Part shown: positions 4,805 through 29,151 of the stretch, piece after piece
Position numbering within the stretch: the stretch's first letter is position 1
Layout: the number at the start of each line of letters is the position of its first letter
Source of the DNA: a virus
Lineage: Duplodnaviria > Heunggongvirae > Uroviricota > Caudoviricetes
Direction: 5' to 3' (one strand)
Length of the DNA: 32,361 nt
IMG/VR virus record: IMGVR_UViG_2695420763_000014
The notes under the pieces: model-generated
Told to the model about the DNA's origin: nothing
Seen by the model: only the letters and a program-made list of their open reading frames with translations
The model's database searches: none
Translations under genes and position numbers: made by a program

Positions 4805-5329
4805 ATGGCTAAACCAGCAAAACGTATCAAAAGTGCCGCAGCGGCTTATGTGCCACAAAACCGCGATGCGGTGATTACCGATATTAAACGCATCGGGGAT
4901 TTACAGCGCGAAGCATCACGTCTGGAAACGGAAATGAATGATGCCATCGCGGAAATTACGGAGAAATTTGCAGCCCGGATTGCACCGATTAAAACCGATA
5001 TTGAAACCCTTTCAAAAGGCGTTCAGGGATGGTGTGAAGCGAACCGCGACGAACTGACAAACGGCGGCAAAGTGAAGACGGCGAATCTTGTCACCGGAGA
5101 TGTATCGTGGCGGGTACGTCCACCATCAGTAAGTATTCGTGGTATGGATGCAGTGATGGAAACGCTGGAGCGTCTTGGCCTGCAACGCTTTATTCGCACG
5201 AAGCAGGAAATCAACAAGGAAGCGATTTTACTGGAACCGAAAGCGGTCGCAGGTGTTGCCGGAATTACAGTTAAATCAGGCATTGAGGATTTTTCTATTA
5301 TTCCATTTGAACAGGAAGCCGGTATTTAA
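4805..5329 (+). CDS. gam: Gam host-nuclease inhibitor (Ku-like DNA end-binding protein)
   Basis: 174 aa, same length as Mu Gam; the sequence MAKPAKRIKSAAAAYVPQNRDAVITDIKRIGDLQREASRLE... matches my recollection of Mu Gam; SD aggag upstream. Confidence 0.88.
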   Translation: MAKPAKRIKSAAAAYVPQNRDAVITDIKRIGDLQREASRLETEMNDAIAEITEKFAARIAPIKTDIETLSKGVQGWCEANRDELTNGGKVKTANLVTGDVSWRVRPPSVSIRGMDAVMETLERLGLQRFIRTKQEINKEAILLEPKAVAGVAGITVKSGIEDFSIIPFEQEAGI

Positions 5330-5427
5330 TACCACCATTAATATTTAATTAATTCACATTCTTTTAATTATGGCGCGATACGTCAGGGGATTGCTCGCGC
5401 CTGAAACAGATTACTGAGGAATAAAAC

Positions 5428-9271: not shown

Positions 9272-9694
9272 ATGCAGCATGATTTATTTGAACACGATCC
9301 GGCAATTCGCCAGTTAATCGGACATATTGATAACATCCCGGCCCCGGAACTGGAATCACGCTGGCCCCGTTCGGTGGTTGATCTGATTGATGTTCTGGAA
9401 AACGAACTGAAACGCCAGAACGTCAGCAATCCCCGCGAGCTTGCCCGTAAACAGGCCGTTGCCCTGTCCTGTTTTCTGGGGGGGCGGCAGTTTTACATCC
9501 CCTGCGGCGATACTATCCTGACCGCGTTACGCGACGATTTGCTTTACTGCCAGTTCAATGGTCGTAACATGGAAGAACTGCGTCGCCAGTACCGCCTGTC
9601 CCAGCCGCAGATCTACCAGATTATTGCCCGCCAGAGAAAGCTGCATACACGACGTCATCAGCCTGATCTGTTCTCACCTGAAAGCCAGAAATAA
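9272..9694 (+). CDS. C: C protein, late gene transcription activator (Mor/C family)
   Basis: 140 aa, same length as Mu C; paralogous to Mor; SD gggggaaaa upstream; sits before the lysis and structural genes. Confidence 0.85.
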   Translation: MQHDLFEHDPAIRQLIGHIDNIPAPELESRWPRSVVDLIDVLENELKRQNVSNPRELARKQAVALSCFLGGRQFYIPCGDTILTALRDDLLYCQFNGRNMEELRRQYRLSQPQIYQIIARQRKLHTRRHQPDLFSPESQK

Positions 9695-9716
9695 CCGGCA
9701 TCCTGCCGGTTATTTC
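9694..9716 (+). terminator. candidate terminator after C
   Basis: Stem accggca (9694-9700) / tgccggt (9704-9710) with a 3-nt loop, followed by tatttcctgt; short T-tract, so weaker than the early terminator. Confidence 0.4.
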
Positions 9717-9785
9717 CTGTCACCATAATCCAGCACCTGCCATCTGATTTTTTAGACTGCCATCAGAGCATTTTTTCAGGGAAGC
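9717..9785 (+). promoter_or_regulatory. candidate late promoter region upstream of lys (Plys position)
   Basis: By position; contains cATAATCC...GCACCTGCC, a motif also present upstream of gene I. Confidence 0.3.
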
Positions 9786-11027: not shown

Positions 11028-11329
11028 TGGATTCAGTTTTAGCGTTATGGCCTTACCTGTTGTACCTGTTGCCTGTCGCCGCCGGTGGGGCCGTCTGGGC
11101 GATGCGTCGTAGTTTTGCCAGCACCGAGCGTGTGGAGCGTCTTGAAAACCGGATGACCGAAATGGAAACCCGCTACGCCAGCATCCCTGGCACAGAAGAT
11201 GTACACGAAATGCGCCTGCGAATTGCAGAGCTGTCCGGCGATATCCGGGTGCTGTCCCAGCGGGTGCAGTCATTTTCCCATCAACTGGAGCTGCTGCTTG
11301 AAAACGCAGTAAACCGGAGTAATTCATGA
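11027..11329 (+). CDS. small membrane protein, candidate lysis regulator (Mu gp25 / releasin position)
   Basis: Start at ATG 11027 overlapping the previous stop (alternative 11009); N-terminal TM helix (LALWPYLLYLLPVAAGGAVWA) then a coiled-coil-like region; in the gp25 position after the spanins. Confidence 0.5.
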   Translation: MDSVLALWPYLLYLLPVAAGGAVWAMRRSFASTERVERLENRMTEMETRYASIPGTEDVHEMRLRIAELSGDIRVLSQRVQSFSHQLELLLENAVNRSNS

Positions 11330-15404: not shown

Positions 15405-16704
15405 TCTGGCGTATGCCGCACGCCTCCCGCCAAAGGAGGCTGTCGCGTATTTCCGCGCCAAAGGCTACAACATCACCTGGAACTGGTACGAACAACTGGC
15501 AGACGCGCACGCACGCGCCTTTACCGTTGCCAAAGCCACCCGGATGGATGTACTGACCACAATCCGTGAGGAAGTGGAGCGGGCTGTCAGTGAAGGCATC
15601 ACCCGTGAGGAATTTACCCGCACACTGGCCCCCCGGCTGCAAAAACTCGGATGGTGGGGAAAACAAATCATCGTGGATGCAGACGGAAACGCAAAGGTAA
15701 TCGAGCTGGGCAGTCCGCGTCGTCTGGCAACCATTTATAACGTCAATACCCGTACGGCGTATGGGGCAGGACGTTATGCGCAGATGATGAATACCGCCGA
15801 TTTGTACCCGTACTGGCAGTACGTTGCCGTTATGGATGGCAGAACACGCCCGGAACATGCGCGGCTGCACAATATGGTTTTCAGGTATGACGACATTTTC
15901 TGGCAGACGCATTACCCGCCCAATGGCTGGAACTGCCGCTGTCGCGTCCGGGCGCTGTCTGCGGCCCGCATGAAAGAACTGGGGCTACAGGTCAGTTATG
16001 GTGCGTCATTCATGAATACCCGCGAAGTGGATGCCGGTACGGATGAAAGCACCGGAGAGATTTTCCGCACATCGTCAACCACGTTTGACAACGGTCGGGT
16101 AAAAATGACGCCGGATGTGGGCTGGTCATATAACCCGGGTTCGGCGGCGTTTGGTACGGATCAGGCACTGATTCGAAAACTGGTGGAAATTCGCGACGCG
16201 CAGCTGCGTGAGCAGGTTGTGCAGACGCTGAATAACAGCCGGGAGCGTCAGCTTGCTTTTTCCCTCTGGCTTAAACGCCTGGCAGGATCACGTCAGACCG
16301 GTCATGAAATCCGGGCACTGGGTTTTATGACGGAATCGGTAGCTGAAGCCGTACATCAGCGCACCGGGAATATGCCAGCCCGTCTGCTTGTGATGAACGG
16401 GAAAAGTCTGGCGACCACTGCTGATGCCGCCCTGAAACCGGAGGATTTACAGCATCTGCCGTCGCTGATGGCAAAACCACAGGCAGTATTGTGGGACAGG
16501 GAGAACCACCAGTTGCTGTATGTTGTGGCAACCCGTGACGGCATGGCCCGGATTGTGGTCAGAACATCACAGACAGTCGGCAGGCAGAATGACCGTGCGG
16601 ATGTGCTGGTCAGTATCAGCCGCGTATCTGCACAGTCGCTTGAAGCCGCGATTGCTGACGGGATGATTGACGTACTGGAGGGGCATGTGGAGGTGAATAA
16701 GTGA
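15385..16704 (+). CDS. F: minor head / head morphogenesis protein (Mu F family)
   Basis: Start placed at ATG 15385 (MPQQTIDL...), overlapping the portal end by 20 nt; about 439 aa; follows the portal as in Mu. Confidence 0.7.
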   Translation: MPQQTIDLAYAARLPPKEAVAYFRAKGYNITWNWYEQLADAHARAFTVAKATRMDVLTTIREEVERAVSEGITREEFTRTLAPRLQKLGWWGKQIIVDADGNAKVIELGSPRRLATIYNVNTRTAYGAGRYAQMMNTADLYPYWQYVAVMDGRTRPEHARLHNMVFRYDDIFWQTHYPPNGWNCRCRVRALSAARMKELGLQVSYGASFMNTREVDAGTDESTGEIFRTSSTTFDNGRVKMTPDVGWSYNPGSAAFGTDQALIRKLVEIRDAQLREQVVQTLNNSRERQLAFSLWLKRLAGSRQTGHEIRALGFMTESVAEAVHQRTGNMPARLLVMNGKSLATTADAALKPEDLQHLPSLMAKPQAVLWDRENHQLLYVVATRDGMARIVVRTSQTVGRQNDRADVLVSISRVSAQSLEAAIADGMIDVLEGHVEVNK

Positions 16705-17171
16705 GTCTTGATATGAACGTTGCCGTGGATGTGCGACGTATTCAGCTTGCACTGGATGAACTGGGAACCGTTACACGTGACCGCGCCATTCCCCGTGTGA
16801 TGGCTGCGGCGCTGCTGTCATCCACGGAACAGGCATTTGAACGGCAGGCAGACCCGGATACAGGGAAAGGCTGGGAAGCGTGGAGCGATTCGTGGCAGGC
16901 ATGGCGTCAGGATCATGGTTTTGTTCCGGGCAGTATCCTTACCCTGCATGGCGATCTGGCACGCAGCATTACCACCGATTATGGACAGGATTATGCCCTG
17001 ATTGGTTCGCCAAAAATTTATGCTGCCATTCATCAGTGGGGCGGTACACCCGATATGGCACCCCGCCCGGCAGGCGTTCCTGCGCGTCCTTATATGGGGC
17101 TGGATAAGACCGGGGAACAGGAAATTTTTGATGCCATCAGAAAACGCGTCAGCGCCGCTCTGAGGCAATAA
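16701..17171 (+). CDS. G: virion morphogenesis protein (Mu G family)
   Basis: 156 aa; probable GTG start at 16701 with SD ggaggtg 5 nt upstream (alternative ATG 16713); overlaps the F stop. Confidence 0.6.
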   Translation: MSLDMNVAVDVRRIQLALDELGTVTRDRAIPRVMAAALLSSTEQAFERQADPDTGKGWEAWSDSWQAWRQDHGFVPGSILTLHGDLARSITTDYGQDYALIGSPKIYAAIHQWGGTPDMAPRPAGVPARPYMGLDKTGEQEIFDAIRKRVSAALRQ

Positions 17172-17367
17172 ACGGAATCAGACATGAAATCAGCCGCACA
17201 GATTTTTTAAAACGCGCCACGGGATTTTTAAACCGGTATTTAACGGTGTATGAATCCCGTTTTATCTTCATTCCACTTTCTTTCTCCATTACTCAAATAG
17301 CATAACCCCAGATTTTCCCGCACCTCCCGCAAACTGACTGCTCACAAACCATGATGAGCAGCAGGAC
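17172..17367 (+). promoter_or_regulatory. central G-I intergenic region: position of the Mu strong gyrase site and of the late promoter for I
   Basis: 196-bp non-coding gap at the centre of the phage; 8-bp perfect inverted repeat acgggatt (17219-17226) / aatcccgt (17253-17260); motif cATAACCCC...GCACCTCCC upstream of I. Confidence 0.45.
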
Positions 17368-18453
17368 ATGAAAAAACACGCGATTGGCATTGCCGCACTG
17401 AATGCGCTGTCCATTGACGATGACGGCTGGTGCCAGCTATTGCCTGCCGGTCATTTCAGTGCCCGTGATGGTCGTCCGTTTGATGTGACAGGCGGTCAGG
17501 GGTGGTTCATCGACGGTGAGATTGCCGGGCGTCTGGTTGAAGGCGTTCGCGCGCTCAACCAGGACGTGCTGATTGATTACGAGCATAACCAGCTACGTAA
17601 GGACAAAGGATTACCCCCGGAACAACTCGTCGCGGCTGGCTGGTTTAACGCCGATGAAATGCAGTGGCGTGAAGGTGAAGGATTATTTATCCACCCACGC
17701 TGGACGGCGGCGGCACAGCAGCGCATCGATGACGGCGAATTTGGTTATCTCTCTGCGGTTTTTCCGTATGACACCGCCACCGGTGCGGTGCTGCAAATCC
17801 GCCTTGCTGCGCTGACCAATGACCCCGGTGCCACCGGCATGAAAAAGCTGACCGCACTGGCGGCAGACCTTCCCGACATCCTTCAACAGGAGAACAAACC
17901 CATGAATGAAACGCTGCGCAAGCTGCTTGCGCGTCTTGGGGTGACTGTCCCCGAAAATGCAGACATCACCGATGAACAGGCAACAGCGGCACTGACCGCG
18001 CTGGACACGCTGGAAATTAATGCCGGGAAAGTGGCGGCGTTGTCTGCCGAACTGGAAAAGGCACAGAAAGCCGCCGTTGACCTGACGAAATACGTCCCGG
18101 TGGAAAGCTACAACGCCCTACGTGATGAACTGGCACAGGCGACTGCACAAAGCGCCACAGCCAGCCTGAGCGCCGTTCTGGACAAGGCGGAACAGGAAGG
18201 CCGCATTTTCAAAAGCGAACGTACCTACCTGGAACAGCTTGGCGGTCAGATTGGCGTGGCGGCACTGTCGGCACAGCTTGAGAAAAAACAGCCCATCGCT
18301 GCGTTATCTGCCATGCAGACCACCACAGCGAAAATCCCGTCGCAGGAAAAACCGGCGGTGGCGGTGCTGTCTGCTGATGAACAGGCAGCAGTGAAGGCGC
18401 TCGGCATTACTGAGGCTGAGTATCTGAAAATGAAACAGGAACAAGAAAAATGA
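17368..18453 (+). CDS. I: head maturation protease / scaffold (Mu I)
   Basis: 361 aa; Ala/Glu/Gln-rich helical C-terminal half typical of scaffold; directly upstream of the major head gene. Confidence 0.8.
   Translation: MKKHAIGIAALNALSIDDDGWCQLLPAGHFSARDGRPFDVTGGQGWFIDGEIAGRLVEGVRALNQDVLIDYEHNQLRKDKGLPPEQLVAAGWFNADEMQWREGEGLFIHPRWTAAAQQRIDDGEFGYLSAVFPYDTATGAVLQIRLAALTNDPGATGMKKLTALAADLPDILQQENKPMNETLRKLLARLGVTVPENADITDEQATAALTALDTLEINAGKVAALSAELEKAQKAAVDLTKYVPVESYNALRDELAQATAQSATASLSAVLDKAEQEGRIFKSERTYLEQLGGQIGVAALSAQLEKKQPIAALSAMQTTTAKIPSQEKPAVAVLSADEQAAVKALGITEAEYLKMKQEQEK
17902..18453 (+). CDS. Z: nested scaffold protein from an in-frame internal start within I (Mu Z-like)
   Basis: In-frame ATG at 17902 (MNETLRKLLARLG...) preceded by SD aggag with 9-nt spacing; would give a 183-aa product. 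Confidence 0.45.
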   Translation: MNETLRKLLARLGVTVPENADITDEQATAALTALDTLEINAGKVAALSAELEKAQKAAVDLTKYVPVESYNALRDELAQATAQSATASLSAVLDKAEQEGRIFKSERTYLEQLGGQIGVAALSAQLEKKQPIAALSAMQTTTAKIPSQEKPAVAVLSADEQAAVKALGITEAEYLKMKQEQEK

Positions 18454-28717: not shown

Positions 28718-29151
28718 CCGATTTAGCCATTATCTGGACGAACGGACGCGGCGATATTGCGCAGGATGGTATTGATATGCTGACCGACGACAGCCTGACA
28801 ACCGATGTGACAATCTCCCTGTTTACCGACCGGCGCGCGCTGGATTCTGACACCCTGCCGGATGGTTCAGATGAGCGCCGTGGATGGTGGGGTGACAGTT
28901 ACCGCGAGCGCCCCATCGGTTCGCGGTTGTGGCTGTTATCACGTGAAAAAGCCACACCGGATACGCTGGAACGCGCCAGAGGGTATGCCGAAGAGGCGCT
29001 GGAATGGCTGAAAACAGCGGGCCGGGTAAGTGCGATTAACGTCAGAGCGGAACAGTTACATCAGGGATGGTTATACCTCTACATTGCACTGACATTACCG
29101 GATGGTTCCGTTATTCCTTATGAGTTTAAAGCAGCATTTAACGGGGTTTAA
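28714..29151 (+). CDS. baseplate wedge protein, gp25-like (Mu W position)
   Basis: 145 aa; ATGA overlap; synteny. Confidence 0.6.
   Translation: MTDLAIIWTNGRGDIAQDGIDMLTDDSLTTDVTISLFTDRRALDSDTLPDGSDERRGWWGDSYRERPIGSRLWLLSREKATPDTLERARGYAEEALEWLKTAGRVSAINVRAEQLHQGWLYLYIALTLPDGSVIPYEFKAAFNGV

Follow-up and report, generated by a model that had tools for sequence, protein, structure and literature searches.

The G–I intergenic region of a Mu-type phage as the probable counterpart of the Mu strong gyrase site together with the adjoining probable terminator and late promoter

We have analyzed the non-coding gap between the virion morphogenesis gene G and the head gene I in a DNA of 32,361 nucleotides from a tailed virus (IMG/VR record IMGVR_UViG_2695420763_000014; the whole stretch is called the window in what follows, and positions are counted from its first letter). 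By its sequence, the region is the orthologue of the G–I intergenic region of phage Mu, with three known elements packed within about 240 bp: the strong gyrase site (SGS), a transcription terminator and the late promoter of I (P_I). We put at about 0.93 the probability that these three together account for the region as a whole, this being the best explanation that we have found. The element is one already known, the textbook Mu strong gyrase site with the neighbouring terminator and late promoter, and since the gap holds the Mu gyrase site, the terminator hairpin and P_I it can be taken as ordinary and already explained. We observed orthology over the sequence, the same features in related phages and a central position of the site in the relatives.

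Results

Source of the window and identity of the gap

From position 2243 onward the window is 97–98% identical to phage Mu in nucleotide comparison. The 351 bases at 17100–17450 were found at 97.7–99.1% identity in 13 phage records, including Mu, D108, SfMu, Mu_3F6, PhiR68_1 and five Yersinia Mu-type phages, and for the surrounding 5 kb the matches were at 91–98% identity. Matches as high as these to Mu-type phages assign the window, on sequence grounds, to a Muvirus phage or prophage from which both phage ends are missing. Its first 2242 nucleotides, coding for ner and the transposase A, differ from Mu and are of another type. They are neither Mu- nor D108-like (the matches to Mu, D108 and SfMu all begin at 2243), and the type is common to the prophage of Escherichia coli RM8082 and to the Yersinia phages vB_YpM_5 and vB_YpM_6. 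The transposase A has 697 amino acids in the window and 663 in Mu. The RM8082 prophage (positions 11043–48332 of our locus L030) is the closest complete prophage and interrupts a NAD-dependent epimerase gene; its ends are likewise unlike those of Mu, its lysozyme gene is annotated as frameshifted, and additional small ORFs, compared with the window, take up about 300 bp between its genes for the small and large terminase subunits.

Gene G (16701–17171, plus strand) codes for a virion morphogenesis or neck protein of 156 amino acids, 99.4% identical to Mu G, and gene I (17368–18453, plus strand) for a product whose N-terminus is 100% identical to that of Mu over 227 amino acids. The gap between them is therefore exactly 196 bp long (17172–17367). 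A preliminary description of this DNA, made from the letters alone, had called it the largest intergenic region of the structural half, and it does exceed all other gaps between adjacent genes, the next being of 105, 98 and 94 bp (by the Mu annotation, over the part that the window covers). Its GC content is 44%, compared with 53% for the window, and the T-rich tracts mentioned in the same description are there as runs of four to six T starting at 17203 (T6), 17225 (T5), 17260 (T4) and 17313 (T4).

The gap is identical to the Mu G–I intergenic region at 190 of its 196 bases (97%). At this locus window coordinates equal those of Mu (AF083977) minus 688, and this allowed us to transfer five features from the Mu GenBank record: the gyrase cut site, a terminator predicted by TransTermHP, the late promoter of I, the ribosome-binding site and the start of I. 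The last two fall on the plus strand within 17356–17370, with the GAG of the ribosome-binding site at 17356–17358 and the ATG of I at 17368 (Mu 18056). The six differences from Mu are located at 17174, 17182, 17186, 17270, 17273 and 17289, and the right arm of the gyrase site and the core of the promoter are free of all of them. All of the 41 E. coli genomes that have the gap carry it at its full length of 196 bp, with at least 97% identity and no insertion.

The gyrase site and its right arm

In Mu the SGS is a strong gyrase site needed for the synapsis of the phage ends and for replication; when it is deleted, replication is delayed by about 100 min and the proximity of the ends drops 30-fold, and the central position is the optimal one (PMC10052514, PMC3820752). 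The expectation that the gap would be the place of this site is borne out by the 97% identity to the very Mu region in which GenBank annotates the gyrase cut. Transferred from Mu (17879..17880), the top-strand cut would lie between 17191 and 17192. Gyrase cleaves with a 4-bp overhang, as described in published work including PMC6379681, and this places the stagger AGCC at 17192–17195 and the putative bottom-strand cut between 17195 and 17196. The context reads ATC^AGCC^GCAC, and from −5 to +77 around the cut the window is identical to Mu. Over the 130 bp of the gyrase motif (−63 to +66, dimensions from PMC6379681; 17129–17258) 127 bases are shared with Mu. Sutormin et al. (2019) used a 133-bp fragment of the Mu SGS that binds gyrase in vitro; it aligns to 17124–17256 with 129 of 133 bases identical. 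Of its four mismatches one comes from the fragment itself, which has a G>C in the stagger where the window has the wild-type base of GenBank. Similarity to the Mu SGS, whose absence had been named beforehand as the observation that would speak against a gyrase site here, is thus close to complete in both comparisons. The mapping of the fragment also means that the left arm of the site is formed by about the last 45 bp of gene G. The preliminary description had placed the SGS within 17172–17367, which is right for the cut and the right arm but leaves out those left 45 bp or so.

Some variation is found in the stagger of other sequences. Three IMG/VR relatives (L013–L015) have AGCT for AGCC, a C>T at the equivalent of 17195, and the fragment of Sutormin et al. 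reads ACCC, differing at 17193.

The right arm (17196–17262) is 100% identical to both Mu and D108. It is made of phased A/T elements, TTTTTTAAAA at 17203–17212, TTTTTAAA at 17225–17232 and TATTTAA at 17238–17244, within which TTTRA motifs start at 17206, 17227 and 17239, that is, at spacings of 21 and 12. It also contains an 18-nt direct repeat, the copies being 21 bp apart. The alternation of weak and strong base pairs has a period of 10.5–11 bp that ranks in the top 0.1–0.6% of all segments of 47 or 60 bp, some 4–5 SD above the mean of the window. Between 6 and 28 other places score higher, so that periodicity alone would miss the SGS. Right-arm sequences are described in two papers as essential, and left-arm sequences as dispensable, in the Mu site.

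Three other clusters of at least three TTTRA motifs within 45 bp exist in the window, and only these: 5306–5363, where the 98-bp gap that follows gam holds four motifs spaced 19 bp apart, 2329–2351 at the A–B junction, and 29125–29147 near the junction at 29151. All three are A/T-rich.

Variation among close relatives and the left side of the cut

The likeness to the Mu SGS covers its position between G and I, the identical AGCC stagger and right arm and, going by the relatives, the central location in this type of prophage. The window departs from Mu in the left half of the site, by an A>G at −18 (17174), a G>A at −10 (17182) and an A>G at −6 (17186), the last two being common to D108. The site might for this reason be weaker than that of Mu or have lost its activity, its binding or cleavage by gyrase reduced by the three changes and only the terminator and the promoter still working. 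[quoted passage not shown] However, D108, which is a viable transposable phage, has the same bases at −10 and −6, as do at least seven of the IMG/VR relatives, and the stagger and the right arm are those of wild-type Mu.

The natural diversity of the region also bears on this point. In a small sample of 14 distinct sequences (the window, Mu, RM8082 and IMG/VR loci) the core together with the right arm had a nucleotide diversity of 0.008, the P_I core one of 0.006 and the leader one of 0; at third positions of codons the values were 0.025 for G, 0.055 for I and 0.062 for F. The 20 bp from the stop of G to the cut had a diversity of 0.096, the highest of the region, which suggests that changes are tolerated there. 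Left-arm deletions are reported to have had little effect. Low diversity in the right arm and high diversity to the left of the cut agree with the published mutagenesis, in which the right arm proved essential and the left could be dispensed with. With these data we regard a crippled gyrase site as improbable, and a site equivalent to that of Mu remains the reading that we prefer.

Probable central position of the site

The cut is located at 48.7% of the Mu genome and at about 49.5% of the RM8082 prophage of about 37.3 kb, an approximate figure, since we located the ends by the host gene that the prophage interrupts and by the terminal inverted repeat. The end sequences of Mu were of no use for locating those of RM8082, because the ends of the two phages differ. 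The preliminary description had placed the gap at the physical centre of the phage; with both phage ends outside the window, centrality had to be derived from relatives; extrapolating the end structure of RM8082, the SGS would sit at about 49% of the window's own phage.

By analogy with the published Mu experiments we infer gyrase cleavage at this site and a role of it in synapsis. Host DNA gyrase would bind about 130 bp centred on ATC^AGCC^GCAC, the phased, A/T-periodic right arm (17196–17262) would wrap round a C-terminal domain of GyrA, and supercoiling would become processive. A plectonemic loop would be extruded with the SGS at its apex and, as the site is located in the middle of a prophage of about 37 kb, the two phage ends would be brought into line at its base in spite of the 37 kb between them. 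Ends aligned in this way would permit fast assembly of the transpososome and replicative transposition after induction.

The inverted repeat as part of a probable terminator

The preliminary description reported a perfect 8-bp inverted repeat with a spacer of 26 nt, and such a pair is indeed present, ACGGGATT at 17219–17226 and AATCCCGT at 17253–17260. When the gap was shuffled 5000 times preserving dinucleotides, 6.7% of the shuffled sequences held a pair of this kind, so the repeat was rejected as a stand-alone signal as not significant. The hairpin that it closes is more unusual. Its predicted folding energy is −19.8 kcal/mol (z = −3.5), and only one in 200 shuffles folds as well. The hairpin and the TTTTATCTTC that follows it extend over 17219–17269 on the plus strand and are equivalent to the TransTermHP terminator of Mu (17908–17953, or 17220–17265 in the window, plus strand), itself a prediction in Mu too. 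The stem is interrupted and A/U-rich, UUUUAUCUUC comes directly after it, and a simple terminator scan misses it. The inverted repeat is the outer stem of this putative terminator and no gyrase-specific feature, yet it overlaps the right arm of the SGS. On its sequence and fold, 17219–17269 is probably an intrinsic terminator, at which the late transcript that comes from P_lys through G would stop.

The late promoter of I

The preliminary description also expected the late promoter of I in the gap, and the Mu annotation supports this. The feature given there as 'late promoter, PMID 2522923' (17977–18043) corresponds to 17289–17355 on the plus strand of the window, with 66 of 67 bases identical. 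The single difference is a G>T at 17289, the first base of the annotated feature. A T at this position is also found in two IMG/VR relatives (L018 and L021) and in the TTACT motif of the distant relatives described below; Mu, D108 and most of the relatives lack it.

When the four Mu late promoters P_lys, P_I, P_P and P_mom are listed in register, a box (C)ATAA(C/T)C is seen at positions 13–19 and a −10-like hexamer at positions 42–47, both positions being read by eye from the listing. The P_I of the window is identical to that of Mu at both. It has, all on the plus strand, the same conserved box CATAACCCC (17301–17309), the 10-bp box TCCCGCACCT shared with P_lys (17316–17325; the match between lys and I is described in PMC4461284) and the −10-like hexamer CAAACT (17330–17335). 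The P_lys of the window itself (9712–9778) differs from that of Mu at 3 of 67 positions, one of them in the 10-bp box shared with P_I, where TCCCGCACCT is changed to TCCAGCACCT.

The four late promoters of Mu require the activator C (PMC4461284, PMC2582627). The gene for this trans-acting activator, on which P_I would depend, is found in the window at 9272–9694 (plus strand), its product identical to Mu C at 138 of 140 residues. In Mu the C-dependent 5' end of the P_I transcript has been mapped, according to the GenBank record (citing PMID 2522923), and we infer that transcription would start near 17342 in the window. By analogy with Mu, P_I would be a C-activated, sigma-70-dependent promoter that drives I, Z, T and the head and tail genes downstream.

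Simple consensus scans for promoters and terminators gave no call in 16900–17600, no sigma-70 promoter being found on either strand. A promoter that depends on C and a long-loop hairpin would be expected to escape such scans; late promoters have no −35 hexamer (PMC2582627). The calls of terminator and promoter consequently rest on the transfer from Mu.

Coding potential of the gap

In Mu-like phages of Pseudomonas (JBD30, D3112 and the DMS3 group) the anti-CRISPR operon is found at the same junction, with the G homologue on one side and the protease/scaffold gene on the other (PMC3993853), as had been stated beforehand. We examined whether the gap of the window might conceal a small gene, be it cargo of the anti-CRISPR kind or one for a peptide like the '31.5' of D108, or else a small RNA. 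The statement of the preliminary description that the longest ORF has 8 codons holds for ORFs of the plus strand that start with ATG and lie within the gap (MKSAAQIF*, 17185–17211), and does not hold more widely. Reading the sequence by eye there is a 19-codon ORF with a GTG start on the plus strand, and on the minus strand mechanical ORFs of 28–46 codons overlap the gap. The ATG of the 46-codon one is created by the G>T substitution at 17289, which most relatives lack.

A further case is D108, in which a CDS of 42 amino acids, '31.5' (678–806 of locus L003), is annotated over the gyrase site and the terminator, at the equivalent of 17177–17305 of the window. In the D108 row of the alignment, read by eye, its first codon is ATC. 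In the window the same frame has no ATG, GTG or TTG start before the 19-codon remnant, and its translation had no PHROG match. The CDS is probably an annotation artefact.

Neither did the four mechanical ORFs match any PHROG family, and a scan of the region against Rfam gave no match at E <= 1. Together with the lack of sigma-70-like promoters on both strands of the scanned interval and with the distant relatives, which keep the DNA pattern and no reading frame, this makes a concealed gene or small RNA in the gap extremely unlikely. The earlier conclusion that there is no cargo in the gap is upheld: we found no credible ORF, and the search of the ORFs against PHROG was blank. In none of the enterobacterial relatives examined, close or distant, was there a gene at the junction of G with I or the protease gene. 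Contrary to the anti-CRISPR locus of Pseudomonas phages, the junction in the window appears to be filled by cis-acting DNA elements, those of the gyrase site, terminator and promoter, and not by gene cargo.

Distant relatives keep the pattern and not the sequence

A scan with the G protein retrieved 2 loci in the genome collection and 23 in the viral collection. We took as distant the loci L004, L005 (Citrobacter braakii) and L023–L028, in which G is 55–69% identical to that of the window, and added the mosaic L022. Their gap between G and the protease gene measures 175–201 bp. Their right arms are 51–56% identical in nucleotides to that of the window, no more than coding DNA, and the idea that the right arm is conserved as a sequence was dropped for this reason; conservation of a pattern is the preferred description. 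TTTRA motifs start 33–37 nt after the stop of G and follow one another at 20–21 and 11–12 nt, to which most members of the L005 group add a spacing of 10. A T-run preceded by a hairpin, mostly cleaner than that of the window, is present in all of them except L004, where the fold shows none clearly. Every one of them keeps TTACT...(A/C)AACCC where the box of the Mu promoter sits (a ATAACCCC-like box).

Similar to these is the Mu-like prophage L031 of E. coli O157:H7, whose gap is of 176 bp and reads GATTTTCTAACCTGTATTTAACGG where the window has GATTTTTAAACCGGTATTTAACGG. The distant Mu-like prophages (L031, the C. braakii L005 and the IMG/VR loci L022–L028) resemble the window in the size of the gap, the phased TTTRA motifs, the hairpin with its T-run and the late-promoter box, and differ from it in a right arm of about 52% identity and, in the L005/L023 group and L022, in the placement of the hairpin; their gyrase sites are putative. 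According to a review, the site of the Mu-like prophage of O157:H7 Sakai is the only foreign gyrase site that supports Mu replication; L031 may or may not be this Sakai prophage. The gap of Citrobacter type (L005) had no match in the E. coli genomes.

In two Mu-like prophages of E. coli, L031 of O157:H7 and L032 of O91:H21, RefSeq annotates a 'tRNA-OTHER' on the minus strand (257–337 and 250–337, respectively), in the interval from the head morphogenesis gene to G. It has no counterpart in the window, where F and G overlap.

These relatives also allowed us to weigh the idea that the phased A/T pattern is due solely to the terminator and the promoter, that is, to a hairpin arm and an UP-like A/T tract, with gyrase binding as something incidental. 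In the window the arms of the hairpin do overlap two of the three TTTRA elements, and A/T periodicity of similar strength is found elsewhere in it. In the L005/L023 group and L022, however, the terminator hairpin is located downstream of the phased array without overlapping it, and the TTTGAA array is kept apart from the adjacent hairpin. Besides, in the published Mu work the deletion of the site leaves transcription and protein production normal at the same time as replication is delayed by some 100 min. A pattern explained by transcription signals alone has for us hardly any probability, and a gyrase site beside a terminator and a late promoter remains the preferred explanation.

The mosaic locus deserves separate mention. 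In L022 (IMGVR_UViG_2531839192_000008, 2441–2687) the G and I proteins are 84% and 98% identical to those of the window, and the right arm between their genes is only about 52% identical, resembling the TTTTGAAGG-repeat type of the more distant phages. Close flanks around a site of another sequence type suggest that in L022 the gyrase site may have been exchanged as a module.

Discussion

The practical outcome for annotation is that window coordinates are now fixed for the cut site and right arm of the SGS, for the hairpin and for P_I, in a region where the dependence of the promoter on C, like the action of gyrase, would follow from what has been published on Mu. The natural variation found among close relatives falls where the published mutagenesis calls the SGS tolerant.

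The distant relatives add a small extra point, namely that a phased A/T pattern is kept in the absence of a conserved sequence. The gyrase site of Mu-type phages may accordingly be defined by the shape of its DNA rather than by its sequence, a proposal that we hold to be about evenly balanced between right and wrong. Oram and Pato in 2004 reportedly explored part of this idea experimentally. If it is true, the TTTRA pattern could predict gyrase sites in transposable phages that are still uncharacterised.
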